Made by a program: the position numbers and the translations under genes. This document shows, in pieces, positions 1 to 43,616 of a stretch of 64,000 nt of DNA. The stretch's first letter is position 1. Each line of letters opens with the position of its first letter. This DNA is from Psammoneis japonica (lineage: Eukaryota): contig QPGO01000005.1 in the NCBI GenBank assembly GCA_008632985.1, positions 827,607-891,606 on the forward strand, written 5' to 3'. The notes beneath the pieces were generated by a model. The model saw nothing but the letters and a program-made list of their open reading frames with translations, searched no databases and was not told the origin of the DNA.

Positions 1-1129
1 GACAAACGAAAAGGCTCCACGTGGAGTGAACAAAACGCAAGAAGCGACAGTTCTACAGTAGTTGGGGGGTCGATCCAACTCACTCTCTCCATTAGAGAGG
101 GTGGTGGCTGGCAGAGAGACCATCCTCAGGTTCAAGTTTTGCTCCTTTGTGTTGGCAAAGATGAGTGTCGCTCTCACAACGTTCCTCCTTCACATCCCCA
201 GTGCAAGCCAGAGTTTTGTGGCACCCCCAGGAGCAGAAGTGCGCTCTTGTCTCAAGGCCATGCTGGCTTGTCGATTGTCAGAAAGAAGCCCTTTTTGTTC
301 TTCATTTCTTTCTTGCTTTGGCTTTAAACAGATGAAAAATGATGTGAGATCCACTTTGTGCAATGATGGCTCCAGTGTGGCTGGAAGTTGTGTGGGAGAT
401 CTTTTGTGGCAAAAGCCCCCCCTCAATCTGGGCTCAAACAAAAAAGAGCCCAAATCTCTGGCTTGGTCATGGCAGTGGCATTGTTTGCAAACAGATCGTC
501 AATCTGCTTTGTTTGCTTCATTGCAGCAGCACCAGTTGAAGAAAGTGCATGGAAAAGACTGCGTTTGCAGTTGAAAGCAGACAACTCGCGCAAGCCACCG
601 CATCAGTGCGGCACATTTTCAGCACAACTTCTGTCAGGTTGCTCAACATTTGTGCTGCTTTGGCCCAACTGGGGTTTCAACACTTTGTGTCATCATTCTC
701 ACTTTGCTCCCAACACCTTTGACATGGTCACCGAGTGCTCTTTTTGCGGCTTGTGTGTCATGTCTTTGCTTTGGAGAAAAGCAGTTGATGCAACTCACTG
801 CATTGGCCTGGATCTGTTCTCAACAACCCCAGGTCTTCCGACATTGCTTCCATCTGAATGCAGACAAAGCAGCTCTTCAGCAAACATGACATGACACAAG
901 AAGCAGCGGTGCTCCTTCTTGCAGACTTGTTGCAGTGGGAGAAGCTTTTCCTGCACTCAACCAGAGCAATGTTGCTCTCTGTGTTCCCATGAAGCACTGC
1001 AAGGAATCTTGTGATTAAAATTTGATTGCTTTGTCAGCTTGAGCAGCAACCAGAAACTGCTTTTGCCTGCAAGTGGGAAAGGAGTCTTGAGTCTTGTTCA
1101 AGGATGGCAGCACAAACTTGCTCTCATGG

Positions 1130-2046
1130 CTTTTTGCAATCGTTCCCACAATCCGAAGGCTTCTCCCAAGGCTGCCCCCCAGCTCCTCCGTTCTCTGCCC
1201 TCATCCTCAGCGTCATCCTCAAGCAACTCAACGCTGAACTTTGCCAATGCCTTTCCTCATCTGACGTCAAATCCACTGCCTCTCTTGTCGATGACACCAG
1301 CATTTGGCTCCCGCGCACCAAACTCTCATGGTTCCTCCAATGCCTCGAGGAGCTGGGCCCGCAGCACGGCATGTGCCTCAACCACTCCAAAACACACATG
1401 CTCACCTCCATCTCTGGCACCAGCCCCTCACCCAACCTGCCCCCAGCAAGTGCCAGCAACACCCTTTGCCAAGCCCTGTCCTTCCTCAACCCTGCAAACG
1501 ACCCCGCTTTACACCCCGAAATCACCACTGGACTCCGCTTCCTTGGCCAACCCGTTGGCAGCCCTGCCTTCACCCGCACATGCCTCGAACAGAAAGCTTC
1601 CAACTTCCGCACCAAACTTGACCACCTTTCATCTTGCCTCTGCTGCACCCAAACCAAAAGCTCCCTGCACCACACCTGCGCCATCCCATTGCTCCCACAC
1701 CTTCTGGTGTCTGATGTCCACTTCAACTTCGACCCAGACAATCCACCACCACTTGCCTCCTGGACCTCACCCTTCCAACAAGATGTCCAGTGCCACTGTG
1801 ATGCTTGTCTGCAACATCTCACAGCACAGCAACAACCCCTGCCACCTCACACCATGCTTCTTGCTCACCTCCCTGCAGCCTCTGGAGGCGTCGGCGGCTG
1901 TCAGCCCACACCCACCTCCACCATCCCCTTCCTCGTCTCTCAATTTGCCCACTCTTTTTGACATGCCACTCACAGACCAACGACAGGCAACAATGACTCC
2001 CCAAAACTCCCTCCCTTCTGCGCCTGCTCTCTCCAAACCTGGATGT
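1130..2046 (+). mobile_element. Degenerate non-LTR retrotransposon (RLE/CRE-like), reverse transcriptase part
   Basis: ORF 1026-1961 contains QSEGFSQGCPPAPPFS (QG.PLSP motif), SLVDD (YxDD-like) and GMCLNHSKT, i.e. non-LTR RT domains 5-7. Interrupted at 2047 by a TIR element. Confidence 0.75.
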
Positions 2047-2115
2047 GTTCCAGCTCTGGGTGGGACCTTGCACCACTGAACTGTGACATCAACAGTTTTT
2101 TGGATCGCGTCGCAT

Positions 2116-2547
2116 TGCCCTGTGTGTGTGCCAGGCGCTGAAAAAGAAGATGTGTTACGACTTTGTCGTTGTGAAAATTGTGAGCTAGTTTAGAGCAGAG
2201 AAAATGGGATCGTGCAAATGGGGAATCTTGCCAAATCCCTGTTCGTTTGCATTTGGATCGCATTGAATCGATCGTGCGTTCGCATCATGGATCGTGCGAA
2301 TCAAGCCATCACGCGCCATGCACGAGTGATGTCATCGTGTGGAATCACGCTGCCATCGTGGGCCAGACGACGGGCCAGTGTGCTTCACACGGATGCTCTC
2401 TTGGCATCCTCAAGGAATTGCCTGAGACCCAGAGCCACGCCCTCCTGTGGTCGTGCTTCCCAGGCACGTGTCAACAACACTGCGTTGCCATGCACAAGAG
2501 GCTCATGCACGGTCTCGCCGTGTTGTCCAGTGGTGAGGCACACTGCA
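2116..2547 (-). repeat. Gypsy 3' LTR
   Basis: Aligns with 6900-7333 and lies next to the PPT. Confidence 0.9.
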
Positions 2548-2586
2548 CACTCCCCCATGATCAGGGCCGTCAAGTGACAGGATGTC

Positions 2587-5500
2587 TCACTGGTGATGGG
2601 GTGCAATCTGCCGTAGATTACACGTGTCTGTCAGCGCTCCGTTCTGGGTGCGCAACGTGCCGTTGTCATGTGCTCGGACAACTCTGGCGGGTCCTGCATG
2701 GATGTCAGAACTGCACTTAGAGGATTGTTCCTGCTTGACAAGCACCAATTGCCCTGCGGCACATTGATGCTCCTTGCGTTTCTGATTTTCACGCTTGTTG
2801 TTTGAGTGGACAAGCTTCTGCTTTCTGGTTTCTATGTGCTTCCACTCAGCACGATGGGCAACAGACAAAACCGCATCGCGTCCGAAGACCAATTGCGTGG
2901 GACTTGCACGCGTGGTCGTGTGTGCCGCAGCTCTGATGGTGAAGGCCACTGCGGAGAGGATGCCACTCCATGGGTCATCTTCGTCCAGTTCCATGTCCTG
3001 CACTGAAAAGGAACGCACCATGTCACCAAGTGTCTGGTGCACACGTTCCACCATGGCATTCGCCTGTGGATTCTGTTCACTTGTGGGTTTCTTCAAAATC
3101 CCACAGTCATTTTTAATCATCTGGCTGAATTCTGCCATAAATTCTGTCCCACGGTCATAAACTGCCTGGGTTGGCCACGGACATCTGCGTGGCCAAGTTT
3201 GTTCTACGATGTTTGCTGCGACGTCTGCGCATTTCGCAGACACTTCTTTAATCTCGAACCACCCGGTTGCTGGGTCAATCATTGTGACTGCCCACAATTG
3301 CAAGGTGTCCTTTCCGCGTCTTTGAATTTTATGTGGCCCCATCACATCCATGCACAGAGTCTCCCATGGAATTGTCTCTGCGACCTTTTCTGGCAGCTTC
3401 CCACAACGCTGCGTTCGGCGTTTTGTCTTCTGGCATCGATCGCACTTGACGCATGTAGAATGCACCGTAGACCTCACACCAGGCCAATGGAAGTGCTGGG
3501 CAATGGGCATTTCTGCACGTGTCTCACCTGGATGACACAGTGTCTCGTGGCACCATTCAGTTAGCGGAACCTGCAATGACTGTGGTGCTACGATTTTGTC
3601 CTTATGACAGATTAACTGTCGTGATGACCCTCCCCCACGATGCGCGCGAATGGAGCAGTCGGACAAGTCCTTGGCTCGTGAGAGCAGGCGCTTGTCCTTT
3701 TGTTGTGCTTTTTGAATGCGCTTGAAGCCAACAGGCAGAGATGGCTCATCTTGAGCATCTGCGTTAAAGGCTTCATGCAAAGGACGACTCAATGGAGTGT
3801 CTTTTACATCCGGATTGGCCTCGGAAGGCAAGCTGGGTGCCAGTCGAAGGCGACCAAGAGCGTCAGCGACTGGGTTGTGGGCACCCTTAACACAGCGTAA
3901 TTCGGGACTGCATTCTTCGCATGTCAGCCGCCAGCGCATGACGCACTCGGCATTGAATGCTTTGCACGTAAGATTTTTATGATCAGCATGCATGATCACA
4001 CGATGACCAAGGAGAATCGTTCAAAATTCTTTCAACGTCTCCACAATGGCGAGTGATTCTCTCTCCGTTGTTGTGTGATTTAATTGCGCACTGTTGAGCT
4101 TTCTGCTGCAAAAGGCGACAGGTTCATTGTCTTGGGACACAACTGCTCCCAATTGATGTTTAGAGGCATCGGCGCGCATCTCAAAGGGTTTGTTAAAATC
4201 AGGATGTGACAACAAAACATCATCCGACATTGCCCGTTTAACGGTTTCGAGTGCCTCATCTTCAACGGACGTCCACTCCCACTTGACAGTCTCGCTTGCG
4301 AGTCGTGTTGGTGGAGCCAAGACTTCAGAACGTCTAATCCACGTGTCGCGGCAGCAGTTCACCACACCAACAAATGAACGCAGGCCGCGTTCATTGGCTG
4401 GGGTCGCGATTCGCTCAATGGCGTCGACTTTGTCAGGCATTGGTCACATTCCATCTCTGTTGACCAGATGACCCAAGCACTCTAATTGGGTTTGACAGAA
4501 GTGAGATTTGGTTGCGTTGACTTTTGGTCCTGCTTTCTGGACCCTCAATGAAGCTTCTTCAAGTTTGTTGAGGTGATCTTCACAGGTGCCTTTCGTCACG
4601 ACGAGAAGGTCATCTGGTTCGAACGAACGACAGATCTTCAAATGAGCCTGACATGCGTTCTTGGAAAATGTCTGGCGAATTACATAATCCCATGGGCAAT
4701 GCCTGCATCTCATACTTGCCCCACGGGAAGATGAGCGTGCAGAGCTTCTTGCTATCAGCATCCAATCGGATGTGATAATAGCCCATGTTTAAATCCAGCG
4801 ATGTAGCCCACATAAAGCCTTCGAGCTTAAGTAGCATATCTTGGATATCAGGAATCGTATAAGGCAATCGCTTGATCCGTTTATTCAGCTCTCTGAAATC
4901 ATTAATAAAGCGTACCGTTAAATCTTTCTTCGGTATGATAAATGATGGAGCTGCCCAATTGGATCGGTTAACGCGTTTGAGAACACCGATACGTACTAGG
5001 CGTTCTACTTCTTTACGTAGCGTAGCTTCGTACGCACGAGGTACTTTATACGGACGAGCGTGGTATGGTTCTACACCCTCCTTGAGTTGGATATGGTAGG
5101 GTTCTCCCTTCCATTCTCCTAATGTCCCATCAAATAAGGACTCATGGCGTTTCAATAGTGCCAAAAGGTCATTTTGTTGAACTATAGAAAGTCCTATTGT
5201 CCCTCGCGTTATGTCCTCGAGGCAGGCCGGCGCGTACTTAGCGTCTAAAATACGCGAAATCCGGTCGGTTTCCGAAGATAAGGCTTCTGGATCTTTAAGA
5301 TAGAAGGAGGTTTCCACCGTAGCATCTACGTGCCTCATTGGTACTTCTCCATTGACTAATGGCCATTCTATCATCTGTTTAGAGAAGACAATATCAATGC
5401 CTTGTGTCTCCAGAATGTCACGTCCAATAATCATATCGTACTTGCCCAACTTTCCGTTGTGTACGTGGACGGTATGCTTAAGTTCTGCAGTTTCGGATAA

Positions 5501-6805
5501 TTCTGGTAACCAAAATTTAACGGTAAAGTCGTTAGACGTACTAAACGAGCCTGCTACCGTAGTCCAGTTTGTCTCAGCCGTTGAATGGCTTCGCAGACGT
5601 TTACAGTATCGACTATCGAGTAGAGTACTGCTGGCGCCACTATCTAGTAGTGCCTTAATGGTTTGAGTCTTGCCCTTGCCATGTTTAGTATTCATAGCTA
5701 TAAACAAGATTGGAGTAAGATGAGTCTTTTTAACTCGTTTACGGGATTGGCCTACAACATGTGTACGATGGTAATTCAGTTGTTCATTAATACATTCATC
5801 TAATGTATTAAAACTACCTGTATCGTGTCGGCAAGTGTCCGAGTCTTCGGAATCACTTAAGTTGAGGTCGCGGAAGTGATTAATTTCCTCCTCGCGGGCC
5901 TTGCGCTTTTTCTGAGCGTTGGCAAAGAACTCCTCGACCTTCGATCCGATGAGAGCATTAATGTCTTCCTCATTCCGAGGTTTTATGTTAGGCTTACTGC
6001 CTCCGTTACTGGAATGTCCAGTCTTGACACGTTTTACGTGGGTGTTCGGTTGGGTCGTGATCAACGACTCAGAATTGTCCGTTCTACGTCCCGGCTTGCG
6101 TGGAACCTTAGCATGTTGGTCGTGGTTACCTTCGGCAAGCTCGACCTGCTCGGTGCGCTCGCAGAACTGTACAAATTCGGCGATGGCATGCGCCAACGGG
6201 TCAAAATTCTGTAGCGTCATGAACTTCTGCCGTGCGTTCGGCACACCGCACTCGAACATGTCGCACAGTTCGTCGTCAGGCAATGGTGCCGGTGTTTCTC
6301 CATCCTCCATCACGGGTGGAAACTGAGAGATGCAGCCGTTAATTTCAACAGCCCTCGCGACGCAGTCACGAGTGGAAACCTCTGCGGGCTTGCGCATGAA
6401 GCGCCGCAGACAACGCTTCTGCAGCAGCGCCGCCCCATTTGGGAAGATGCTTTCCTTTAGCTTCGCGACGCATGCTGCGTGCGCAGCGTTGGTTTGGGAT
6501 GCCTGCTCATCAGTGGCATTGTCAAATGACGTCAGAGCATCGCCCTGCAGCAGGTCACGCATGAGGGCAAATTTCGCTGGCCCGGTCGTGATGTTTTGTC
6601 CTTCGTGCACGCGATCCACGTTGCGCAGAAAGATCAGGAGTGTCTCGCATGTAGCCGCAGAAAGGTGCGGGATGCCCATCTCGTGCATTGGACTGTCCGG
6701 ATCAGTGGGGTTGTTACGCAGCTTGAACGTCTGGCACTCGCCCTGCTGCAGCTCTTTCTTCTCCGGCCGTGCGAATGGAATCGGCGGCTCAATCCGCTTC
6801 TTCAT
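2587..6805 (-). pseudogene. Gypsy gag-pol, disrupted
   Basis: Protease ALLDSGAS; RT WAAPSFIIPKKD, DFRELN, LDLNMGYYHI; RNase H ADASKHQLG, SRKL; integrase HPG..C..C, DRGTEF, ANAMVER. Frameshift near YxDD (~4615) and TGA stops at ~4444 and ~4021. Confidence 0.92.
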
Positions 6806-6899
6806 GGTCGTTTTGAGATTTGTCGGTCCTGCCAACATTTCACAGTTTCATTTCTGTAGATTTCGTCACCTCGCACAACATGCGGGAGTGACATTGCTG

Positions 6900-7333
6900 T
6901 GCCCCATGCATGCACTGGGCGCTAAAAAAGAAGATGTGTTGCGACTTTGTCGTTGTGAAAATCATGAGCCAGTTTAGAGTGGAGAAAATGGGATCGTGCG
7001 AACAGGGAATCTTGCCAAATCCCTGTTCGTTCGCATTTGGATCGCGTTGGATCAATCGTGCGTTCGCATTGTGGATCGTGTGAATCAAGCCATCACGCGC
7101 CATGCACGAGTGATGTCATCGTGTGGAATCACGCTGCCATCGTGGGCCAGACGACGGGCTGGTGTGCTTCACACGGATGCTCTCTTAGCATCCTTCTGGA
7201 ATTGCCTGAGACCTAGAGCCACGCCCTCCTGTGGTCGTGCTTCCCAGGTGCGTGTCAACAATGCCACGTTGCCACGCACAAGAGGCTCATGCACGGGGTC
7301 TCGCCGTGTTGTCCAGCAGCGAGGCATGCTGCA
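6900..7333 (-). repeat. Gypsy 5' LTR
   Basis: Aligns with 2116-2547 and is followed by TSD GCAT. Confidence 0.9.
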
Positions 7334-7657
7334 GCATGTCGCACACACACATTTCTGCGTGTGTGATGTTCTGCGAAATTGTTTCATGCTCCCTGTTTTG
7401 CAAAGCCAAAGGCTTTCTATTTTCGACATTCATGAGAATGAAAATGCGCTGGGTGTGTTCTTCAATGTCTGCAGAATGCACCCGGGCAAACCATCAATGA
7501 TGTGCTCCAAGTGTGAAGGAGGAGATGTGTTCACAAAATTGCCTCTTTTTCTGTTGGCGACAACGTGTGTTTTTGTTGCTTGGTGCACTTGCTGCAGAGC
7601 TTGCACATGGAATTCTGCAGGTGAAATGTCACACAGAGTCCCACCTGGAACTGGAAC

Positions 7658-8770
7658 CCATCCCTGGGCCATGTCCTGCTGCCCTTTGCGCCTTTGCCAA
7701 GTCTTCCAACACTGCGGCACAGCAGCCATGCACAACCTTGACCCTCCTCCACGCTCCCTCAAAGCCCTTGTAAAAACACACCTGCTGCACAACCTCTCCC
7801 ATGACCTGCGCCATGCTCACTTCAAACAACAACTCAAGAATCTCCAACAACAAGGACCATCATGCGTTGCCCTTGTGCTCCCATTGCTCCTCTCCCCACT
7901 TGGTGCGAGCCTCCCTCTCCACTTTCTTGCCCGCTCCCTGCCCCAACAATGCTTCAAGAACCCTGAACAGTTCCTTCTCATGTTGCAATGCGCAAACTGC
8001 GGCTTCCCATCTCACCTCAACAGCCTCAATCCATCTCCTGCCCCTCTTGCACCGGCACCATTGACCCCTGTGGCAACCACGCTTTTTGCTGCTGCTCCCT
8101 GGGACACAAAACAACGGTGTCCAACGCCATCATCCGAGACGGCCTGTGTGCAACTCTCCAAACATTGGCCCCCCTGTCTGGCATCTGTGCTGACTCATCT
8201 GCCATCCACCACGAACCCGCCAACTTGGTGCCCCATTTGCCCCTCAAATGCCCTGCTGACGTGGGCATCCAGCTCACCCCAGCTGCCTCTCCTCTTGGAC
8301 ACTGCCATCTGGCAATCAATGTCACCATCCCCAAACCTCCTCCATTGCCTGCTCCTGGCTTGCCTGCCCCCACCCTTGACCCTCACACCAAGGCACACTG
8401 CATGAGCACCAAACGGAAGTTCAATGGCATCATCCACGAAACCCAACATGAAGCCACACTTGCATCTGCCCTTGACGATGCTGGCATCCACCTCATTCCT
8501 TTTGCTGTCGACCATCCAGGAGCCCCTGGATGCTTTGCTCACCACCTTCTTTTTGGTGCCAACCAAGAACACCCAATCCCTGCCCCACTGGCCCCTCCCT
8601 CCTGGACCACTGAAACCTCCTTCCAACACCCCACTGCCCATGCTGCATGATGTGCCTGCACCCAATCATCACCATCAGCCATTCTCCCCACTGCCGCCAC
8701 CGCTTGGCAAAATGTCACAGCCGAACAATTCAGCTTGACCCGCCATGCTTCTACTCCATCACAGTGGGGC
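7658..8770 (+). mobile_element. Continuation of the non-LTR element: zinc knuckle plus restriction-like endonuclease
   Basis: ORF 7988-8650 reads CPSCTGTIDPCGNHAFCC...SNAIIRDGL...EP...CPADVGI...LAINVTI, matching the C-x-C..D..G.H...C / RD / RPAD / AIDVT pattern of RLE-type LINEs. Same strand and C-rich composition as 1130-2046. Confidence 0.7.
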
Positions 8771-8776
8771 CTTCAA

Positions 8777-9121
8777 GTTCCAGCCCCAGGTGGGACTTTT
8801 TGTGACATTTGCCCTGCAGAATTCCACATGAGAGCTCTGTGTTTCGTGCTCTGGTCAATGAACACATTCATCTCTCACACAAAAAAAGGCCAAAGTTTTG
8901 GACAGTGCACCTGCCCTGTGCCATTTTTAAGACACTCAAGAATGGTGCAGAAGAAAAAAAACATTGAAAGTTGTTGAATGGATCGCCTGACAATTGCACT
9001 ATAAAATGACACAAAATTTTGCCAAACTCACGTAGAAATGTACGTGCGCGACATGCGACGCAATTCAAAAAACTGTCGATGTCACAGTTCAGCAGTGCAA
9101 GGTCCCACCTGGACCTGGAAC
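8777..9121. mobile_element. MITE-like TIR element, second family member, inverted relative to the first
   Basis: TIRs GTTCCAGCCCCAGGTGGGAC and GTCCCACCTGGACCTGGAAC. Both ends match 2047-2115/7334-7360 and 7595-7657 in reverse complement, while the middle is divergent. Confidence 0.7.
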
Positions 9122-11664
9122 ATGACGTTCAAAGCCTGAGCTTTGCAATCACCAAATCAATCGCTGCCCAATTGACCTGCTGCTCCACCAAACTGCAATC
9201 CCAACTCTCCAACCCCAGTTCAAAATCCATCGCTTTTCCCACCTGCATGACTCAATTTCACCCTTGCCCTGCATCTGCCCCTCCCCCCTTGCCACTGGGT
9301 GATGTTGCACGTGAACACTCCTCACGCGCGTGCACCACTGGGCAGCTCCCCTGACCAGCAACAAGTCCTCTGTCAAAGCTGACGCCCCAACCTCTGAGAC
9401 CATGGGTGATGCCTTTTTGACCTTTTTGTCATTGCTTTCTCACAGTGCAGCTCACTTTCAAATCTTGCATGGGTTGACTCTTCCACCAAGCAGTTTGGGA
9501 AAAAATGCAGCAGTCTTGGTGTTTGCACAAGAGCCAAACTGCTGCACAAGGCCAGTGAGTGAAGAAGTCAAGAAGAGTGCAGCAATCCAACCACCTTGAT
9601 GTTCCTCTCCTTTTGGCTGAAGTGACTCAACACCAAAATGTCACAAGGCAGAGTGTCTCCATCAGGTTGTCTGTCTCATTTTGACAAATGTTTGGGAGAG
9701 GCCAGACAATCTCAGCAGGGAACTTTCATTGAGGTTGCAGAGCTTGCTTGCAATGTCTGGCGGCACAATCTCAAACAATTGGCCCCTCATTTCAAGCAGC
9801 ATGTTTTGTGTGATGTGAAACAGCCATTCTCTCTTGCTGGCTGAAAAGTCAAAATGACATTGCCAGCCTTGCTTTGCAGCTGCATTGCAACAAGACTGAG
9901 GCCCAGCAGTTTCAAGAACAACTTCCCACTTGCACTTTTTGTGCTGCGTTCTTGTGTGTTGCTTGTCTGAGTTTGTTGAAAAGAAAGCAATGCCTTGGAC
10001 AAAGAAAGCAATGCCTTGGACAAATCATGCGACACTTCTCCACAATGAGGCTGGCTCTTGAAAAGAGCAGAAAGAATGTGTTTCTTTGTGTGTTGGGGCA
10101 GTTTTGCCAGCAGGGGCGAGTTCAGTCCAGCACAAACACAGCACATCACCTGGTCTTGCCCTTAAAAAGATTTGTCAACAAATCAGCTGCCAACTCTGGA
10201 ATGGACAATTTCAAAAGAGCTCCAAGGAATCTGCCTTTTGGAGGATTTGATGGTCTTTTGAGTGACAAATGGCCCAGCTGTTGTTGAAACAATGTGCTGA
10301 CTTCATTTGTTCTTGCAGAGAGCTCAATCATTCTTGAGTTTTGCAACAAGCCTGCTCAGCACCACCAGCAACAAACTTTCTAAGCTGAGCAATTCCAGGA
10401 GGGTCAACCACAGAGGAAATGAAGACATGGGTGCAGCAGCCACAACATTCAAGGTGGTGTCAATGGCTTCTCTCTGATGCAGGCAGCAAACCAGAGTGTG
10501 CCTTTTTGAAAGATCGCATCTCTGCAAAGGATGCTGAAGACTGTTCTGCCCATCATTGCCGCTCATTTTGTCAACAACTGCCGTGAGAACAAAATTGCCA
10601 AACAAGGGTCAACAACTGGTCCAACCCTCCTGATTGCCCACTGGTTCTCCTTGGCAGCTCCCAAAAGCTGATCTCCTTCACATGGGGCGGTGCAAGGCTT
10701 TTTCTGCTGCAGGTGTGAGACACATCTGATGCAAGTCAACTGTTTGCCCATGGCACCCATGAGGCACTGCACACTGCATGCCATCGAAGGTCTTTGTGCT
10801 CTTGTGCATGGAAAAGAGCTTTTTTTGCACTTGACCCATCCATGTGCAGCAGCCTGCCTTGTTTTTTTTTTTTGCTCTGAGCTTTTCTGCCATTCTGCCA
10901 ATGCAGGTTTTTCAGCACCCAGGCTGACTTTTGAGCACCATTCTGCCCCAGCCAAACAGCCAAGCCCACACCTTTGATGTCTGCCTCCTCGCATGGCTTC
11001 TGATCACCAAAGCAATCAGTGCCAAAGCCATCACCAGGCCAGGATGTCCAGAGTTTCTCCTTCATGGCAAGGTGATGAAGTTTGTCTGCAGGCATGTCTG
11101 GATGAAGCACTTTTGTTGGAGGCATGGGATGGACGTGGTTAAAGTCCTCCCTGGGGGATGTGGAAGTTGAATGTTTGAACATGGTCAAATTGTTCAATCG
11201 ATGAAAAACTGTTGAAACGAAGTTGGCAGCTGCAACAAGTTTGGGTTCCAGCTGGTGAAAGATGCTTTTTGCCAACGTCCCCAGTTGTTCCGTCGTTTTG
11301 AATGTGTGCGTTTGCCCTCGCGATCGGATAGTCCGAACCATCCTTTGTACCCGGTCGAATGAGTCGATGCCTTCGAAGCAAGCTATGCGATGCGACTCCC
11401 TCTACAGTGGACTATGACCATCTTACCGTAACAGAGTGGTAGGGCCCAGCAAAAAGAATCTATTTAGATACGAAGCTATTTGTCTGCTTTGCTGCGCGAT
11501 TCAGAAAAAAAACTGGGTCTATAATGACGAAGGACCAACTTTCAGTTCTCACACGTCCTCTCTAACAGGTAGCTAGTAGTAGAGAGTAGAGAGCTGAAAA
11601 GAAGCTCCTGCCCAGCATTTTTTCGAAACTTGGGATTAATTGATGTTGCCGACGAGGTGCTCTC

Positions 11665-30700: not shown

Positions 30701-30715
30701 GCAAGACTGTTAATC
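30701..30715 (-). promoter_or_regulatory. Putative primer-binding site complementary to the tRNA-Asn anticodon arm
   Basis: GATTAACAGTC directly follows the 5' LTR on minus; the same sequence is at 32701 in the second element. Confidence 0.55.
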
Positions 30716-33653: not shown

Positions 33654-35444
33654 ATGGTTCTCACGCAACAGCAACAAACCGAAAGCTTCAAATGCATTCT
33701 AGGCACTGTGCTCAATCAAGACGATGACAGCCCTCTTCGTTCTGCCCTGTCCATCAACGGGATTGAATCGTGCGAGGAATTGTTCACGTTCTTACCCACC
33801 CAAATTGATGCCCTCACTCACAGAGACGGCGCCAATGCAGTGCCTTTGCCACGGACCCACAGAAACCTCCTAGCAGCTTTGATCAGCTTCTACTTTGTCA
33901 AAGTTTGCAACGGTGATGATGTGACCAATGAACCCCAGTTGCTCACACCCGAGGAATTTCGCAACTGCCGCCTTGGTCCGGACTGCTTGACCTCTCTAGC
34001 CACTGGCACAGCACCCTCTGCACCTGTGCCCAGTCCCTTGCCATCCAAACCAGATGAACCCAGTGCCATTTTGACACCAGCCTTGCACTGTGCCACCACT
34101 CAGGTGTCCCCCAGAAGTGGTGTCAGTCGTGCCCCGCATGTCTTGACCAACCCGCCTGCAAGCAACCTCGGCCCAGTGCAGGATTGCAGCCCTTGCACAG
34201 GCCTGCACTTCAAGACCAGTTGGGACACTCCACCCATGGCTTCCAAAGCTGCAGTCTTTGCACCCCGCAAACCACGTGCTGCCAACCTCCACGTGTCGAC
34301 TTCTGTCGCTGTCACCCTTCACAGTCTTCGTTTGGGAAGTGATGGAGGTGACAACTTGCTTCTCGCATCTCCTGATGGGGAGCCTCCTTTTCCCGTCATT
34401 GAATCTGTTCACAACAGTTCAACTGGTTCATCAGATGGGGAGTTCAGGACATCCAAGCAGCTTCATTGTCTTCGGATCCTCCAAGCATTGCACCATGAGA
34501 CTGGGCCTCCTGATTGGATGCCCCAAGTCTCGCACCTCGAGACCAGGCCTCCTGATTGGATGCCTCAAGTCTCGCACCTCGAGACTGGGCCTCCTGATTG
34601 GATGCCCCAAGTCTCGTGCCTCGAGACCAGGTCTCCTGATTGGATGTCCCAAGTCTCGCACCTCGAGACCAGGCCTCCTGATTGGATGCCTCAAGTCTCG
34701 TGCCTCGAGACTGGGCCTCCTGATTGGATGCCCCAAGTCTCGTGCCTTGAGACCAGGCCTCCCAACTGGACTCTCCACGTCTCGTGCCTCAAGACCGGGC
34801 CTCCCAATTGGATCCTCCACGTCTCACACCTCAAGACTCGGCCTCCGGATTGGATCCCTCAAGTCTTGTGCCACGAGACTCGGCCTCCTGATTGGATCCC
34901 CCAAGTCTCGCACCTCAAGACTTGGCCTCCTGATTGGATCCCCGAAGACTCGTGTCACAACACTGGCAAGTCCTTTTGGATCCCAGAAGTCTTGCAGCAC
35001 GGGACTGGTTGCCCCAATCAGACATCTGCAGCCTTGCACCACAAGATGTCTTGCTCCAATCCGATCCCCGAAGGCTTGCACCTTGAGACTCTTTTCTCCA
35101 ATTGGATCAGTCTCTCAGGAGATGCAGTCGGATTGGTGGAACACAAGACCACCGCTTGTGCCTTTGAACTGATGCTTGCTCTGTTCCCCGAGTCGTGCAA
35201 ACGCCATGCCACCTGCAATGTTGCCCCACCGTTCAACATTGTCAACCAGACCAAGCTTTGCTCCTTCCATTGCAAGCGCGGATGTGGAATCCCACAAGAT
35301 CCCAAGTGTGCCTTGAGCTTTGAAAAGCACAACGGCATCTGCAATTGGGGAGACGCAGCTCATCTCAAGATGACCCACTTGGAGAATGCAACGTTGCTCT
35401 CGGATCTTGATCCTTTCTTGTCTCCTCATGTTTTGGTGCTTTGA
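33654..35444 (+). CDS. Gag-like mosaic protein with 14-aa tandem repeats (element-encoded, possibly non-functional)
   Basis: 596-aa ORF with short blocks homologous to the neighbouring gag-pol (RLGSDG, PDGEPP..I.S.H, KL.SF...NG...WGDA). Confidence 0.6.
   Translation: MVLTQQQQTESFKCILGTVLNQDDDSPLRSALSINGIESCEELFTFLPTQIDALTHRDGANAVPLPRTHRNLLAALISFYFVKVCNGDDVTNEPQLLTPEEFRNCRLGPDCLTSLATGTAPSAPVPSPLPSKPDEPSAILTPALHCATTQVSPRSGVSRAPHVLTNPPASNLGPVQDCSPCTGLHFKTSWDTPPMASKAAVFAPRKPRAANLHVSTSVAVTLHSLRLGSDGGDNLLLASPDGEPPFPVIESVHNSSTGSSDGEFRTSKQLHCLRILQALHHETGPPDWMPQVSHLETRPPDWMPQVSHLETGPPDWMPQVSCLETRSPDWMSQVSHLETRPPDWMPQVSCLETGPPDWMPQVSCLETRPPNWTLHVSCLKTGPPNWILHVSHLKTRPPDWIPQVLCHETRPPDWIPQVSHLKTWPPDWIPEDSCHNTGKSFWIPEVLQHGTGCPNQTSAALHHKMSCSNPIPEGLHLETLFSNWISLSGDAVGLVEHKTTACAFELMLALFPESCKRHATCNVAPPFNIVNQTKLCSFHCKRGCGIPQDPKCALSFEKHNGICNWGDAAHLKMTHLENATLLSDLDPFLSPHVLVL
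34497..34958 (+). repeat. 42-bp tandem repeat, about 11 units plus a degenerate tail to ~35110
   Basis: Unit GAGAC(TG/CA)GGCCTCCTGATTGGATGCCCCAAGTCTCG(CA/TG)CCTC, encoding ET(G/R)PPDWMPQVS(H/C)L. Confidence 0.95.
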
Positions 35445-37554
35445 CTCCAAAGTTCTTCAGTCAATCCAAAGTCGAATCTGTTTCTGTGGCTCCTCAAGCA
35501 AACTGGGGAGTGACAGGATTTGAACAGGATTTGGGTGCGCGCAAAACATCGCACGCTGTTTAGTTCACCGCGCACAGTTTTGTGTGCCTTAGTTCCGCGC
35601 GTTCGCGCGCGATGCAGTTTGCTTTCGAGCCACAAGGCTCACAAGAACAACAACAGCAGCCCAATTGTGCCGACTCACACGTCTTTCGGCTCCTGCAATG
35701 GTCTCTGAGCGGAGACTCATCTGCCATTTAGACAGCAGCAAGGAGTTGTTGTTTGAATTCTTGCCATTTGCCTTCAATTTCTGTCACTCTCCTTGTGGCT
35801 GAGATGGCTGTGTCATCTTTTGATCCAGAAGCAAAGCAGGCTAAATGACATGAGTCAAACCTCCAGGAGTGGAGAGAAAAAAGTCTTAAAAAGAGAGTTG
35901 CCCCCCCCCCCCCCCTTCAAAGCTGGCTCTGAAAAACAAGGAGGAGAGAGTGAGCTGTGAGAAGAGCTGCACCCGCTTGAGACATGCTCCACTCCACAGA
36001 AGGAATTTTTGAGACAAAGTGCCATGGAAGTCTGTGCATGAGCTTCTTTTGTGGGACAGTCTGCAACAACAGACACCAAATTGCAGTCACAACATGCACA
36101 AGAAGCAAAACAAGGAAAAAATGTCTTCTTTGTGTGCACGTGTGGTTTCTTGATGACACACGCACATCAACAACAAGCAAGGCTCACACCTGCTTGCAAG
36201 ATGTGTGAAATTTGGATTTTCTGGATGGCTTCTAGTCCCTTTTGACCATGCAAATCAGACAAATCAATGATGCGGAGCAGACACAGTGGCAGAGGGCAGA
36301 AAGACACACACAAAAGGCGGGGCAATTTCCGTGGTGATTGCTCTGCTGTGTTGTGTCAATGAGAAAATGAGCAACAATGTGCCTGAAACAATTCTGTGCT
36401 GCACAGTGCTGGCACATTTTGCAGATTGACACAAGTGTGGTTGATCTGCCTTCATTTGAACACATCTCACTCTGGCATGTTGAGGTCCCCGCCCAGAGCT
36501 GGAGCCCATTGTGAGAGCAAGAAATGACCAAGACAAATGAGGACAATGAGCAGGAGCTTTGTGCACAAAGCAACAAATGATGTTTGCTGTCTGCTGCAGC
36601 AGAAAACAAATGCTTTGCAGCACAGTGCAGATCAGCACCGAAAAAAGAACCCAGATGCTGGTGCAAATGCCTTGTGCACAATCTGGTGACAACAGCTCAT
36701 TGGTGTTGCACACACTGCAATTGAGCGACACAGATTCAAGCAAAAATGACAAGCAGCATGCAGAGCCATGTTGCAGTTGGCAAGCACACAACAGCCAGGC
36801 AACCCAAGCCAGGTGCAGAAGGTCCTGTGTTAGCTGGATTGGGGGTTTGTAGATCCCCCCTTTGATGACCCCTTGAAAACACAGAGCATGTCACAAGAGC
36901 AAGCAGCCTGGGTGTGCAGCTCTTGGAGGCTGCATCTCTTGCTCTCTCTCACACCACCACTAGACAACTCATCCACAGCATGAAAATTGCTTGTTTCTGC
37001 TGCTTTTGACCCAACAATGACACCAAGTCTCAGCCTTGCAACAACAAATTTTGTGCTGCTCTTCTCTCAAACATCAAAACATTGCTCAACACAACACTCT
37101 GAAAAATCTTTTGAGAGCAACAAATGGGCAACAAGAGAAAGAGAAATGATTTGCAGTGTGGTGCCACTGACAATAGAAGAGAATGACAAAAGAAAAATTT
37201 TTATGTTGTGGAAAATGTTGCCTGGGGTGATGTGTCATTTCGCTGCGCTACACACTGATGCACTCGTGAGATGAACCAAATCTTGGGTGCAGCAATTGAC
37301 GCAAGAAAGGAACGGATCGCACTGTAACTCATGTTACTGCAGTGATATTTGCCAATAATGTAGCGGTAAGTTTGCTTGCCAAAGTGGTTAAGACTAATCT
37401 TAAAATACACCAAAATTGTTATGTGGGTTCAGTAAAAGTGGCCGAGACACATGCGTCATGCTGTGGATTCGGTGGAATAAACAGGAACTTGCTTGGATTA
37501 TTCTGCTTCGACACCGTCAGCATCCTGACTCTGTGGCAGCTGGCTCGAACGCTT

Positions 37555-38652: not shown

Positions 38653-38899
38653 GGTGGAGGTTACTCTGAGTTACAATGGAAAGACGAAACCACTGTAAGT
38701 TCGCACGACATCGTTTGCAAGAAGAGTAGCAAGTAGCAACACAAAACACAACAACGAAAGAGACAAAAAGAGAAGAAAGGTTGGAGTTCAGTGAGAGTAG
38801 TCACGCAGTCACGAGCGAGTCTGATTCACGGATGACTTCAACTGCGTCATCGGATTGGCTCATCTTCTTCCGGCAGAAACGTCGGTAATTTGTTCATGT

Positions 38900-41800
38900 T
38901 CGTGTGCAAGTTCGTGGCCGCTAAAAGGAAAAGGGGAAAAGGGAAGGGATTCACCATTCAACGCACACAAAACTTGACTGTGCCAGCAGGGCCAGAGATT
39001 CATTGGCTTCTTCTTTGTGGTCTGGGGTGGCTGCAGGTGCAAAAAGGAGGGGATGATTCAACCACTCCTCAGCAATGCACACAAAAACTGACCATGCAAG
39101 AAGGGCCGGAGATTCATTGGCTTGCTCTTCTTTGTGGTCTAGGGCGGTTTTGCTGCAGGTGCAAAAGCTGCATGCACGCCGAAGCTTCAGGGTGACCATG
39201 TGATGCCCTGAGGGTGTGCCACCAAGCTGAACACCCTGGCTTGGTTTTGAACCAAACCCCAGGCCAGCTGGCAGCTGCTGCCAACCAGGGGTCGAGGTGC
39301 TTTCCCCCCCCTCAGCATGGTTTGGCTGCTCAAGCTGGCACAGCCCACCCTGTTGCACTCACTCAAATGCTGCACTTGGGGAGGGCCAGGGAGAAAAAAA
39401 ACATGCAAGCTTGGCTCTGCTTTTTTCAGACCTTGTGTCAGTTGGTGTTGTGAGCATGCTCTTGAGAGAAGAGCGAGAGAGTTGCTGGCTGCAATGCTGT
39501 GCAGAGAGTCTTGTTGTTGGCACATCACACAGGTTGTGTGCTCAGCATGCTCAATGACTCTTGGGCCCAACCTCACTCAGAGCTTCTTCATGTGAATGAC
39601 AAATTGTCCTGCAGTGCTGACAAATGAGCTTGAAGAGACTTTTGTGTGCCGTTTTGCAAAAGCAGCATGGGGGGCACCAATGATGCTGCGAGCTCCTGCC
39701 AGCTCAAGCTTTGGCTCTTGCTCAATTGTCAGGGGTTGTGATGTGTGGGGTCAGGCAGCCCAGGAGCCAGGTTGCTTGTGCTCCTTGCAGATGGCACAAA
39801 GCACTGTTGCAACTGCAAGAAGAGCAACTCTTGTGCAGAGGTGCACAAATTGTCTTGTCATCCATGTGCATGCTTCCTTGCATGCAATCAATGGGCAAAT
39901 GACAAAATGATTCATGCAAAAAGATGAAGGTGCAAGTGCAAATGGCAAATTTTCTCCATTGCCCAGAGTGCTGCCAGTCTTTGCTTGTCATCATAAATGA
40001 AGCAGATGTTTTGGGGATTGGACAGGAAGCATTGGGTTGAGGTGTCACTGCTCTTCTTTGGACATGGAGCTGTCTGAAGTGCTGTCAATGCATTGTGCTG
40101 TTTTGGCAATCAAACCACTTTTTGCTCCACAAAAACTCCCACAGGTGCAGCACATTGTGACAGGCAGAAGCACCAGCATGATCCACCTTGTCATTTTGTC
40201 ATTTGTGCGTGTGCTGAGTGCCTGAGTGTGCAAATGTGCGTGTGCAAATGACAACAGACAGTTTGTGCACTTGAGGTTTTGTGGTTGTGCTGGCATTCTT
40301 GAGGCCTGGGTGCACCCCTGGGAAGCTGTGTCTGACAAAAACTCAGCATTGCTGCCAGTGCCAGAAATGTGTTGCCCTGTGTGTCTTGTTGCTCTGGCTC
40401 TGGGAGTTTGCAACCTCAAGTTTGATTTCTTGGCTGGCAGCTTGGCAGACCATCTTGATCACAGCCTGGTGTGTGGTGGGTGGAACTGTCGCCAAGAGCT
40501 GTTCTGTGGAGGAGGAGGGAAACAGGCAGAAAAGTTTTGCAGGAGCTGCTCTGTCAATGGCTGCAGCGGCCCAGACCATGGGCACTTTCTTTTGACAGAA
40601 GAAGCCAAGCAACAGCCACAGCAAGAGAAAATGCTTTTGTCATTGAGCATCTGATGGACTCCAGCTGTTCATGCATCAACATGCCTCTTGCTTCAGACCC
40701 TGTGTGCAGCATTGCTGTGTGGAGAAATTTGTTGCTGGCGCATCTCAGGGTCTCATGCCCAGTGTGTTCAATGACCATTGAACCCAACCTCACTTGCAGC
40801 TTCTCTTTGTGCCAACAACAAGTTGTTCTAAAGCACTGACAAATGAGCTTGAGGAGGCTTGCATGCCATTTTTTTGCAGCTCTGTGGTGGTGCAAGGAGC
40901 ACCAACAGGAGCTTGCAACAGCTTGGGGGGGGGGTCACAGCTGTCTCTCAAGCTGGTGCTCTCAATTGTGAGGGGTGGCTGTGATGTGTGGGGTTGGGCA
41001 CTCCAGCCAGCTTGTTTGTGTTCCTTGATCCTTGCTCATGGCACAAAGCACTGCTGCTGCTGCTGCTGTGAGGAGGGTGATTCTTGTGGAAGTTGGGCTG
41101 GCACTCCAGTTGGAGGTCTGGGTGCAGCACCCCTGGGAAGCTGAGGAAGGGATTGGTGCTGTGCGCTGCCAGGGCCAGAAACATGTGCTGCCCTGTGACT
41201 TGTGGCTCTGGAAGCTCACCACAACATCAAGTTTGACATCTCAGCTGGCAGCTCAACAAACAGTTGTGACTGCAGCTCAGTGTGTGGGCAGCACTCTGTT
41301 GCCAAGAGCTGCTCTGTGAGGGGGGGGGGGGGGGGGAATTGGCAGAAAAGTTTTGCAGGAGCTGTTTTCTGTCAGCAGCCAGGGCAGCCTGAGCTGCAGT
41401 GGATTTTCTTGATGGAAGCCAAGCAGCCACAGCAGGAGAAGACAATTTTGCAATCGAGTGTTGCGCTTGAGTGGACAAAGCCTGGACATCCACACTTCAG
41501 CTCTCCAGCAAACAGCACTCTCCAAAGGTGGCATTGCAAGAACAGCATGCTCCATGCACCAGCCAACCAGCCCAAAGCTGCAAGTCACAAAAAAGCCACC
41601 AACCTCCCAACCAGCTGCAAAGCAGCAGTCAAATCATGAACAGTGCTTGAGGGTCCAAGGTTCAAAGCAAGAGCGGCACATCAACTCTCTTCTTGTTTTG
41701 TGTGCTCAAGAGCACTTTGTGTTCTCCACAAGTCTTTGGTGTGTGCTCACCTCTGTTGAGTGCAGATTGAAAGAAGGCTGCAAATTTGGGATGGGTTGGT

Positions 41801-43400
41801 TCATCTTTGCTGCAAAAGGTGTGTGTTGTCCAATTTGATTGGGTGCCAATGCAGAGATCCTGAAAACCATGTGTTGACATTTTGCAACAAACACCTGAAG
41901 AATGCTGCAGTTGGCCAGCACAGAGGTGCAACGGCGATTTTTTGTTGGACATCCTGTTTTGCCTGTTCAATTTTGCTTGTGCCCCAAACTCTGCATTGCT
42001 GCCCATTCAGCTCGTTCTGCGCCGGAGTGAAAATGTCACTTGAGGCTTTTTGCTGCCCATTTGGCTGTCGTCACTGAGTGAAAATGATGATGATGTGTCA
42101 TGGAGGTTGTCATCAACTGGCCACCAACATGAGAACTTTGTTGAGATTTCTGTTGAGTCTTCTGCCATGCAGTTGGTGCTGTGCAAGCAGTGATGGCCAT
42201 TGGAGTGATGTCGTGGACCTTTGGTCTAATTTGTCATGCGCAATCCAGTGAGAAATCTTCTCAGAATTTGTGCCTTTAGAGCATCTCATTGTCTCCTGCT
42301 GCACCCTGTCATCCTCTGGGCCACATTCTTGCACACCCTCAAGAGAAGTGTCTGTTGTCATTTTCTGCAATTCTCTCTGCCACCACGTTGTGCAACCTCA
42401 AAAGAAGTGTCTGCAGCCATCTTCTTGCTTCTGTGCAAATCGTCGCACATGTCCCAGGCAGTTGTCACCCAAACAAACACACTGGCATTGACTTGCAGCA
42501 ACAGAGTTGTGTCCACCCAACAGCCTTTCTTTGATGACAGCTGATCCAGTGGCAATCTTTTGTGGTGCTGCAATCCTGTGACAATCACCTGTGCTCTGTG
42601 CTTTCCTGCCCCTCCAACCGATCTGGCAGTGCACCTCCACCTCTTTTGGGGCCTGCTCATGGTGGGGAAACATTTCCCCCCACAATGTTTGTCCTGTGAA
42701 AGATCTCTTTTGAACAACCAGCACAAGCAGATTGGTGCCCTCACACCTGCCACTTTGCATGTCAGCATTGCCATCCAAAGGCTGTCGACTCCATTGAGCA
42801 AACCCTTGTGACCAACTCACCTTGTTGACTGCTTCAAAGTTCAACTGTCAAATCAAACTGTCCAATGGTCCAAGTGCCAAGCTGGACATGGACCATTTCA
42901 TCAAGGCTGTCCAAGACCTTGTCAAGTCTCATGGGTGGGGATCCTTCTGCCATCTCAAGAAATCTGATGGTGCCAAGGTCGTGTGCCCGTGTTTGAGCAT
43001 CTTCATGCCTTTGCTGTCAAGGACCCTGAGAAGGAGCATCTTGCTCATCTGGGAGCTTCTGGTGGTGAAGCTTGTGATGAGTGTGAGATTGACAACATTG
43101 GCCTGTCCCAACTCATCGTCCAGGAGTCAAGCATCACTGCAGCATTTCGCAAAAAGATCGAGGTCAAGCTCAAACACATGAAGAGCTGCGAGGATCTTCT
43201 TCTGGGACTGGCATTGTTCATGATGGCCCTTGACACCCACTGTGCAAGTGCTCTCCTTGATGCAAAGTCTGCCAAGGAAAAGCCAACAACATTGTTGCTT
43301 GACTCCTGAACTGCGTGAAGATGTGTGACAATGTAGCCCCATGTCCGTGCGGCGCGGCCGCGCGGGTCGGCGGCGGCTGCTGTCTTGCCGGCTTCCAGCT
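38900..43400. other. TpA- and CpG-depleted degenerate repeat domain with internal duplications
   Basis: Blocks ~39520-39840 and ~40740-41090 are similar, as are ~40290-40640 and ~41110-41450, and ~38985-39050 and ~39100-39165. Confidence 0.65.
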
Positions 43401-43616
43401 TCGTGCTTCTTACGGATGGTTCCTCGCGCTCCTCTCGACTGCATCTCTCGCGCCAGAGTAGTTCTATATATCCTACATGTTAGTGCCTTTGAAAAGTTAA
43501 TTCTATCTCAGATAGACTAGTGTGGTACTTACTCTAGCAAAGAGAAGCGAGAGGAGAAGATAGATGTGCAAAGTACAAGAAGCTTGGTAGAATGTTGGAG
43601 AGCTAACTGCTTCGAT

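Follow-up and report, generated by a model that had tools for sequence, protein, structure and literature searches.

TpA-depleted domains and in-place TpA mutation of mobile DNA in a 64-kb stretch of the diatom Psammoneis japonica

We analyzed a 64-kb stretch of eukaryotic nuclear DNA from the diatom Psammoneis japonica (GenBank assembly GCA_008632985.1, contig QPGO01000005.1, positions 827,607 to 891,606, forward strand), called the window below; it contains two assembly gaps, at 27368-27734 and 29389-30149. Gene islands in the window alternate with domains that have nearly lost the dinucleotide TA (TpA). Counted per kilobase, the observed/expected ratio (o/e) of TA was 0.00-0.06 over the depleted domains vs. 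∼0.5-0.7 in the gene islands. At 400-bp resolution the depleted domains lie at 1-2800, 6800-11400, 16800-21200, 23600-24200, 31000-32800, 33800-37200, 38800-43400, and 63400-64000, and a milder depletion (0.1-0.3) spans two long terminal repeat (LTR) retrotransposons. The evidence given below makes it very probable that a real, locally targeted process, specific for TpA and acting in situ, has worked on silenced or mobile DNA here.

The eight most TA-depleted domains were pooled as class A (18,939 bp), the younger LTR elements form class B, and four gene islands (28,994 bp when pooled) served as the unaffected control. The first class A domain (1-2101; TA 6 observed/120.6 expected, o/e 0.05; CG o/e 0.35) holds a degraded reverse-transcriptase (RT) remnant on the plus strand (1026-1958; RVT_1 E = 5.7e-6, below the Pfam cut-off). 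The others are 7334-11320 (TA 11/246.3, 0.04; CG 0.28); 16730-21230, at single-copy depth (TA 10/276.7, 0.04; CG 0.17, TG 1.82, CA 1.87); a short stretch flanking the Copia element at 23610-24050 (TA 1/29.6, 0.03; CG 0.32); the spacer between the Copia element and LTR-bounded element 2 at 30992-32424 (TA 3/105.3, 0.03; CG 0.16); 35787-37170 (TA 6/94.2, 0.06; CG 0.12); 38890-43330, with diverged internal duplications (TA 6/269.2, 0.02; CG 0.14, TG 1.80, CA 1.86); and 63350-64000, the start of a domain that continues past the window end (TA 1/46.5, 0.02; CG 0.31). The largest control island, at 43460-63340 (TA 818/1367.7, 0.60; CG 0.98), has Pfam matches to Kri1, methyltransferase, UFD1, PPR, GDSL lipase, mitochondrial carrier, and other families.

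Class B includes a Gypsy-type LTR retrotransposon on the minus strand at 2102-7333, recognized by Pfam matches to RVT_1, rve, Integrase_H2C2, and a protease and by blastx to Gypsy pol. Its LTRs were found at 2134-2547 and 6918-7333, and in purine/pyrimidine space they reach 2102 and 6886. A TA-normal patch lies inside it at 4681-6000 (minus strand; gag, protease and the start of RT), with TA 107/101.4 (1.06) and CG 1.15. Some contigs join 2106 to 7361 and skip the Gypsy element, which means that copies of an older host element exist without it; the Gypsy element was inserted into older class A sequence. Inverted-repeat matches flank the insertion site, at 2044-2132, 7562-7660, 8774-8872, and 9037-9124.

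The Copia-type LTR retrotransposon (24051-30991, minus strand; RVT_2 E = 1.7e-26; TA 0.27, CG 0.93) has LTRs at 24051-24325 and 30716-30991. LTR-bounded element 2 (32425-35786, plus strand; TA 0.12, CG 0.67) has LTRs at 32425-32700 and 35511-35786 that belong to the LTR family of the Copia element, in the opposite orientation. Mutation has gone further in it than in the Copia element, and we recognized no pol. A tandem array with an 84-bp period (34472-35108) lies within a 631-aa open reading frame (ORF) of element 2.

In pooled class A DNA, 44 TA were observed vs. 1,188.4 expected (o/e 0.037), compared with 1,198 vs. 2,004 in the pooled gene islands (0.60). TG and CA are raised to 1.86 and 1.70 (gene islands 1.17 and 1.14), and the G+C content of the affected domains is equal to or above that of the genes. 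By an arithmetic estimate, TG+CA in class A exceeds gene-like levels by ∼1,470, about as much as TA and CG together fall short (∼1,550). The longest TA-free runs are 1,564, 1,398, and 1,167 bp vs. at most 197 bp in the gene region at 43.5-63.3 kb; domain 38890-43330 has runs of 1,398 and 1,057 bp. The loss of TA is therefore confirmed as real and far beyond chance.

The domain boundaries are sharp (<100 bp). At one of them TAs lie a few bases apart up to 16655, followed by a single TA at 16724 and the next only at 17506; comparably sharp edges were seen at 11.3, 21.2, 37.2, 38.9, 43.4, and 63.3 kb. The unique intergenic DNA adjoining the domains is TA-rich at these edges and is thus not depleted, the flanking genes and intergenic DNA having a TA ratio of ∼0.6. 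The depletion is confined to discrete regions with normal surroundings; of these regions, the Gypsy, Copia, and LTR-bounded elements alone are of established mobile origin. A preliminary description of this stretch had reported nearly TA-free repeat domains between gene islands with plentiful TA, and its coordinates agree with our 400-bp profile. It placed the phenomenon at 1-43440; the depletion there is real, and it is not uniform, since TA is normal in three gene islands (11.4-16.7, 21.2-23.5, and 37.2-38.8 kb) and in the Gypsy patch and stands at 0.69 where the Copia element has its 3′ end (30401-31000).

The class A domains gave few hints of what they once were. Pfam analysis of their 123 ORFs of at least 90 aa returned nothing beyond the sub-threshold RVT_1 match and chance matches to PRP4 and AHL_synthase, and no blastx match to 240 Copia and Gypsy proteins was obtained. 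A purine/pyrimidine self-comparison detected no hidden similarity among the large class A domains, indicating that they are not copies of one another. The ORF of the RT remnant has no Tyr in 311 aa. Its relatives (12 long proteins chosen from the best 46 matches) are proteins of 840-1,320 aa with RVT_1 alone; only three conserved Tyr columns could be compared, poorly aligned and reading Y>E, Y>Q, and Y>L. We found no terminal inverted repeat (TIR) element or transposase in the window by Pfam analysis of ORFs or by blastx against the Copia and Gypsy proteins. The proposal that LTR, non-LTR, and TIR elements are affected alike is thus only partly verified: it stands for LTR elements (Gypsy and Copia), the RT remnant with its RT-only relatives may or may not be of the non-LTR type, and there is no TIR element for it to rest on.

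At integration an element has two identical LTRs, so differences within a pair arose in place. The three intra-element pairs show 47 differences: 28 TA-type, 15 CpG-type, 2 other transitions, and 2 transversions. The TA-type differences consist of 13 single sites, with TA retained in one LTR, and 15 double sites, where one LTR has TG and its partner CA; apart from the CpG-type changes, 28 of 32 differences are TA-type. The Gypsy pair has 10 double and 5 single TA-type sites (TA facing TG or CA), 7 CpG-type changes, 2 other transitions, and 2 transversions. In the Copia pair there are 9 differences (7 single TA-type, 2 CpG-type, no double sites and no others), and in the pair of element 2 we counted 5 double sites, 1 single site (TA facing TG), 6 CpG-type changes, and no others. 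When the LTRs are compared as purines and pyrimidines instead of four letters, identity rises from 90.9 to 98.4% (Gypsy), from 96.4 to 99.6% (Copia), and from 93.8 to 100% (element 2).

A TG in one LTR facing a CA in the other means that the same ancestral TA was struck independently, on opposite strands, after integration. In a four-copy LTR alignment, 31 of 34 variable columns interconvert TA, CG, TG, and CA, i.e., pyrimidine-purine (YpR) steps, and no site has both TA and CG. The double sites of element 2 carry TA in a Copia LTR at four of five positions and CG at none. Apart from the CpG-type changes, the mutations are nearly exclusively A:T to G:C transitions, and the process, from these comparisons, acts on integrated double-stranded DNA, on both strands. 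For the Gypsy LTR we estimate arithmetically ∼26 ancestral TAs, of which ∼87% were mutated per copy, against ∼11% for CpG and ∼0.25% for other sites. On these LTR counts TA in the young Gypsy element decays faster than CpG by a factor of very roughly 15-20, and faster than the background by a factor in the hundreds.

Editing before integration, of RNA by an ADAR-like enzyme or of cDNA by a deaminase with subsequent insertion of the mutated copies, has some points in its favor: domain edges coincide with element ends, and hundreds of Gypsy copy-equivalents share TA-poor segments, some mutated versions of which may have propagated. The two LTRs of an element are made from one template, yet the three elements carry 28 TA-type differences between their LTRs, 15 of them TG facing CA, and the strongest effect is found in domains without retroelement features. 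As the LTR pairs differ independently on both strands, pre-integration editing was rejected as the main source.

Comparison with homologous proteins gave the direction of change. The Copia pol (24273-27365, minus strand) was aligned with 60 homologues, the best of the 120 listed among 737 passing E ≤ 1e-20; the best of the 737 is 68% identical to it, and the relatives include Nitzschia inconspicua. The window sequence deviates at 40 of 494 columns conserved at ≥80%, and 16 of these deviations are conserved Tyr (16 of 23 replaced, 10 by Cys and 6 by His). Each of the 60 homologues, treated in the same way, showed 0-1 Tyr to Cys/His replacement. The Gypsy element was compared by blastx with a conserved-column map built from 60 homologues, the best of the 120 listed among 732 that passed. 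In its TA-poor part all 17 conserved Tyr were changed (Cys 11, His 6), vs. 0 of 7 in the TA-normal patch (counted over 4681-6100), which is an internal negative control within one element. Other frequent changes in the TA-poor part were Ile to Val (5), Thr to Ala (5), Ile to Met (4), Leu to Ser (2), Val to Ala (2), and Leu to Pro (2). Each is the product expected from TA to TG or TA to CA, within a codon or across a codon junction.

Because the conserved Tyr codons are kept in the relatives and lost here, TA is ancestral and TG/CA derived. The TA to TG/CA direction put forward in the preliminary description is thus borne out by the Copia and Gypsy counts and by the LTR pairs, and the converse, TG/CA as the ancestral state in relatives, does not fit the 60 Copia homologues. 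Its motif examples LECLGH, NCCRD, FCSRKL, and NHTT are present in the window translation; Tyr to Cys at Copia residues 531, 563, and 595 of the window protein falls in the consensus motifs SVYSG, GNAYL, and KALYGL; and the Leu to Pro/Ser, Val to Ala, and Thr to Ala changes that it listed were all seen in the Gypsy element, together with Ile to Val and Ile to Met. Both strands are affected, since Tyr to Cys (21) and Tyr to His (12), pooled over Copia and Gypsy, are judged from the counts to be not clearly different from 1:1. The about equal use of the two strands also speaks against pre-integration editing. The excess of Tyr to Cys is in any case explained by a preference for TAY.

We examined the neighbors of the mutated base in the conserved Copia columns. 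A to G at second codon positions was found at 10 of 23 sites after T, 1 of 40 after A, 0 of 30 after C, and 1 of 66 after G; outside TpA this is 2 of 136, so A to G is enriched at TpA over other contexts. T to C at first positions occurred at 6 of 23 sites before A vs. 0 of 69 before T, C, or G, and CpG-type Arg changes at 0 of 39. Both A to G and T to C are restricted to the TpA context.

The surviving TAs reveal a further preference. The share of YTAR (TTAA, CTAA/TTAG, and CTAG) among them is 57/144 in class B and 28/44 in class A, compared with 141/818 in genes and 3,787/22,004 in 78 Copia loci from environmental metagenome contigs. Depletion is 3- to 5-fold for ATAT, ATAC/GTAT, and ATAG/CTAT (chi-square p = 9e-14 vs. 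the environmental baseline) and is strongest for ATAT and ATAC/GTAT. This implies a preference on the strand of the mutated A for T-A-T over T-A-C over T-A-purine; if the mutated base is taken as T, the most favored context is equivalently A-T-A. Every Tyr codon reads TAY, and the near-total loss of these codons fits the third-base preference. ADARs prefer a 3′ G, opposite to the preference found here, and this is a further point against editing before integration. ADARs do prefer a 5′ U (Mettrop et al., bioRxiv 10.64898/2026.01.13.699255), as the edited sites would require, and they are described as metazoan-specific (Iyer et al., PMC3239186). Overall we regard pre-integration editing as highly improbable.

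Class A DNA has lost CpG as well as TA. Pooled CG is 244/1,159 (0.21; 0.12-0.35 per domain) vs. 0.97 in gene islands, a loss that cytosine methylation of silenced DNA would be expected to give. The TA and CG ratios are 0.22 and 0.94 in the Gypsy element without the patch, 0.27 and 0.93 in the Copia element, 0.12 and 0.67 in element 2, and 0.02-0.06 and 0.12-0.35 in class A. Young elements that lack TA while keeping CpG at 0.93-0.94 indicate two separable decays, with TA loss the faster and the first; the old relics, in which both TA and CG are gone and TG and CA abound, are therefore the joint endpoint of the two. The preliminary description had overlooked CpG decay, which accounts for the CpG loss only, not for the TA loss. 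Decay of 5-methylcytosine (5mC) resembles TA loss in being a domain-limited conversion of a self-complementary YpR step to TpG/CpA, and it is present in class A and in the LTR pairs (15 of 47 differences). It differs in that it cannot remove TA, and the young elements are TA-poor with CpG kept.

CpG decay in the same domains would also supply T:G mismatches for error-prone repair. A polymerase eta-like enzyme engaged in mismatch or patch repair of methylated heterochromatin could produce A to G at WA, and TA is a WA motif. The AA context is spared, however (Lys to Arg and Asn to Ser 1/40 vs. Tyr to Cys 10/23), and transversions are nearly absent. The young Copia and Gypsy elements lost most of their TA at a CpG ratio of 0.93-0.94, so that TA loss is not secondary to CpG deamination. 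The polymerase eta WA signature was rejected because of the TpA-only context, and we consider repair of this kind very improbable.

We compared the window with contigs of two public sequencing runs. X1 is a DNA run assembled into k-mer contigs, and its sample is possibly the one from which the assembly was made. X1 contigs show no differences from the window over 1-1421 and 4 over 9092-20000. They carry the same TA-free sequence, so the TA-poor alleles are present in reads, with support that is not independent if X1 is the assembly sample. By our own count from the printed contexts, 16 of the 24 best-supported variant places that were classified are YpR transitions; this count leaves out a cluster at 10991-11077 that comes from one diverged contig. 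Run X3 behaves like RNA in yielding a spliced contig, although it is not on record as RNA; none of its contigs cover 16676-20000, and some lie on the Gypsy element at 5337-7337.

An artefact or an ancestral peculiarity could be suspected, i.e., base-calling or assembly error at modified bases, foreign DNA that was TA-poor from the start, or selection against TA. Gaps and collapsed repeats do occur in the assembly, a chimeric join might account for the TA-normal patch, and X1 may depend on the same sample. Against this, the X1 k-mer assembly gives the same TA-free sequence at a uniform depth of ∼61; Tyr codons kept by the 120 relatives are replaced in the pol genes, so TA was ancestral; the LTR pairs diverged in place; and selection is implausible on dead elements that contain stops or broken frames. 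Artefact and TA-poor ancestry were rejected on the X1 contigs, the Tyr polarity, and the LTR divergence, and we hold explanations of this group to be extremely unlikely.

The single-copy depth of X1 is ∼61. The Gypsy family has a summed contig depth of 13,000-33,000, equivalent to hundreds of copies, and a repeat at 8672-9338 is very high-copy (summed contig depth 48,599). At ≥85% likeness, the depth of class A DNA is 68-79 over 9339-11339 and 61-65 over 16676-20000, and 60-91 overall when 1-1334 is included. The preliminary description had taken repeats to be the target; the depths do not bear this out, as the most extreme class A domains are at single-copy depth. A duplication trigger of the kind known from repeat-induced point mutation (RIP) is thus not demonstrated. 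Either the old copies have diverged beyond detection, or chromatin or foreignness is recognized instead of duplication, as with the single-copy region of integrated viral DNA in Bigelowiella natans (10.64898/2026.01.13.699255).

The idea of a dedicated A:T to G:C mutator, on the other hand, agrees well with changes that are confined to TpA, arose after integration, and lie in sharp-edged domains, and it is the best reading of the data. We infer that the process is enzymatic and guided by chromatin or another silencing mark. A putative enzyme would be recruited to silenced chromatin and would deaminate adenine in T-A-(T>C>purine); it may be a TadA/ADAT2-like or another polynucleotide deaminase. 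The natural TadA/ADAT2 context has a U before the edited A. The resulting inosine would be read as G at the next replication. Hits on either strand convert TA to TG or CA until TA is nearly extinct. Tyr to Cys/His, Ile to Val/Met, and Leu to Pro/Ser changes inactivate the elements, much as RIP does with fungal repeats, and a slower CpG to TpG/CpA decay, expected from cytosine methylation, proceeds in the same domains. A targeted TpA process combined with adenine deamination at silenced chromatin is our best explanation as a whole, and we put it only a little short of an even call. DNA adenine deamination in the T-A-Y context, by a hypothetical enzyme, is the chemistry that we tentatively prefer, with somewhat more doubt than assurance. 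The process may have evolved as a defence or may be a side-effect of a chromatin mark.

Several observations weigh against this interpretation. The untouched 1.3-kb patch in the Gypsy element is not predicted by simple targeting of whole elements. Its left edge is sharp (TA at 4483, then at 4681, 4685, 4713, and onward) and adjoins a frame break at 4614-4619, where other copies carry indels (small insertions at 4614-4616); the patch could be a conversion tract, the trace of a patchy process, or an assembly chimera. Metagenome contigs scanned with the Copia alignment gave 79 loci with a median TA ratio of 0.70, and only one, L077 (positions 1-1800), has a low TA ratio (0.33) with 12 of 17 conserved Tyr changed to Cys/His; its protein is ∼62% identical to the window Copia, and the other 78 loci show 0-1 such change. 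The search patterns contained Tyr and were biased against mutated copies, so 1 of 79 is a lower bound and not evidence of rarity. Four other loci (L053, L004, L025, and L009) have CpG ratios of 0.20-0.23 with TA at 0.43-0.52, showing that other diatoms can undergo CpG decay with no TA decay.

Read support also carries less weight than it might, X1 being perhaps the source sample of the assembly and so not independent of it. Two of the 4 differences in the 10.9 kb compared with X1 are a TG/CG difference at 17386 and an A>G at 17507, at a rare surviving TA; the latter is the sole hint of ongoing activity and could be an allele or a recent event. The class A domains stand at single-copy depth and, apart from the sub-threshold RVT_1, have no Pfam or blastx match; the recognized signal may be repetition, chromatin, or foreignness. 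Finally, TpA is self-complementary, and A to G on one strand is the same event as T to C on the other, so that sequence cannot name the base that was hit. It could equally be T, and sequence would not favor adenine deamination over thymine modification.

If thymine is the base, a TET/JBP-type dioxygenase or another enzyme would turn the T of 5′-(A)TA-3′ in silenced DNA into a mark, 5-hydroxymethyluracil (5hmU) or 5-formyluracil (5fU), which would occasionally mispair with G and give T to C; TA loss would be the slow cost of an epigenetic mark, as CpG loss is of 5mC, and not the work of a dedicated mutator. 5-Formyluracil does mispair with G. All of the sequence evidence fits this account equally, T to C and A to G at TpA being one event; the preferred ATA/TAT context can be read as a 5′ A beside the target T, and CpG decay in the same domains would suit a by-product of a chromatin mark. 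Dinoflagellates make 5hmU with TET/JBP homologues, and their repeats and transposons are enriched in it; older Crypthecodinium work quoted in the same texts found T in TA and TC to be preferentially replaced (PMC11572971, PMC11071213). The dinoflagellate system thus resembles ours in an A:T-pair modification enriched over transposons in an alga of the SAR group (stramenopiles, alveolates, and Rhizaria), a possible basis for T to C at TpA. It differs in that the text of these two papers describes no mutational consequence, and in that the TC context is unaffected here (conserved Ser to Pro 0/29 and Phe to Leu 0/21 in Copia). The base-resolution map of Breviolum shows no sequence preference of 5hmU (PMC11071213). 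A TA decay of ∼15-20 times the CpG rate, saturating in elements with few other changes, is moreover high for a passive side-effect. We know of no report of 5hmU from diatoms, although no search for one was made, and we count this against the thymine route as well. On balance we think a thymine hit rather unlikely, though it is the main rival, and adenine deamination remains the reading that we carry forward.

A process with the same signature was published for the first time in 2026, from an unrelated alga. In mutation-accumulation lines of the chlorarachniophyte Bigelowiella natans, two integrated viral regions acquired 231 mutations, of which 230 were A to G or T to C, all at TpA, at a rate of ∼6e-7 per site per generation, ∼1000-fold above background (Mettrop et al., bioRxiv 10.64898/2026.01.13.699255). 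The targets are integrated DNA of nucleocytoplasmic large DNA viruses (NCLDV) and virophages, and single-copy DNA can be hit; clusters depleted in TpA and rich in CpA and TpG exist elsewhere in that genome, RT and DDE Pfam families are enriched in its low-TpA coding sequences, and an ADAT2 homologue is the candidate enzyme, unproven (10.64898/2026.01.13.699255). The statement in the preliminary description that no such process had been described therefore no longer holds. In the literature searched, which did not extend to subscription journals, we found no report of TpA hypermutation in a diatom.

The likeness to the B. natans preprint lies in mutations that are almost exclusively A:T to G:C, at TpA only, giving TpG or CpA according to strand, in regions that are not of host origin. 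The differences are that the host there belongs to Rhizaria and here to Stramenopila, that the targets reported there are viral insertions and here LTR retrotransposons and unclassifiable relics, that o/e falls to 0.02-0.06 here vs. a Rho of 0.45 given for its NCLDV region, and that CpG decay accompanies TA loss here. A third-base preference is seen here, whereas the words 'trinucleotide' and 'flanking' are absent from the text of the preprint, whose supplements S2-S12 may hold flanking data. The preprint offers de novo mutations from an experiment; our evidence is comparative only. New with respect to it are the different eukaryotic lineage, the transposon targets, the near-complete erasure of TA, the CpG decay, and the third-base preference.

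RIP of Neurospora and other fungi resembles the present case in dense, transition-only mutation of integrated mobile DNA with a dinucleotide context, on both strands and with fairly sharp edges, and coding capacity is inactivated in both. RIP acts in the opposite direction, however: its C to T changes, which fall chiefly at CpA, give rise to TpA and make the DNA AT-rich, whereas here TpA is destroyed and TG, CA, and G+C rise. It also needs duplication and a premeiotic stage. The most affected domains here are at single-copy depth, although their old copies could have diverged beyond detection. ADAR hyper-editing and APOBEC3 editing of retroelements in animals likewise leave clustered transitions in mobile elements, show a defined neighbor preference, and are the work of deaminases, as we tentatively propose here. 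Those enzymes act before integration, on RNA or single-stranded cDNA and on one strand, whereas the mutations here arose after integration on both, and APOBEC gives C to T/G to A, not A to G. As leads only, stramenopile-specific deaminases fused to SAM and Tudor domains have been predicted (Iyer et al., PMC3239186).

A wider proposal would be that one ancient DNA base editor, guided by chromatin and working either as an adenine deaminase or as a thymine oxidase, is common to diatoms and chlorarachniophytes. It would read 5′-TAT/ATA-3′, recognize silenced transposons and integrated viruses regardless of repetition, and rewrite every TpA. We offer this as speculation, on the unlikely side. If it is true, it would be a second eukaryotic system that mutates the invader, beside RIP and APOBEC and possibly SAR-wide, and maybe also the first enzyme in nature to turn A:T into G:C in the double-stranded DNA of chromosomes. 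If the pattern of the window is genome-wide, a major phytoplankton group inactivates its mobile DNA by A:T to G:C hypermutation, and the B. natans report grows from two viral insertions to a general defence or chromatin phenomenon that saturates transposons. Diatoms are transformable, and the young Gypsy and Copia copies with residual TAs are natural reporters for finding the enzyme. Any candidate must reproduce the preference for TAT/ATA and the sparing of YTAR. A natural enzyme for chromosomal A to G would also be of interest to base-editing research.

TA-free DNA has practical consequences for annotation. It retains TGA as the sole stop codon, so that long spurious ORFs arise in every frame and can mislead gene prediction. 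The 123 ORFs of at least 90 aa in the TA-free domains overlap in several frames on both strands, almost all of them without a family match. TA loss also hides transposons from homology-based annotation and biases dating by LTR divergence.

The long ORFs of the window further include ordinary genes with Pfam matches to HSF and a 7TM receptor. Every named best match of the UFD1 protein is from a diatom, at 58-73% identity, which identifies the host as a diatom and sets it apart from Bigelowiella. The spliced contig of run X3 maps to 11505-13433 on the minus strand and outlines one gene with five introns of 85-107 nt (CT..AC on the plus strand), while most other genes of the window are long single ORFs.

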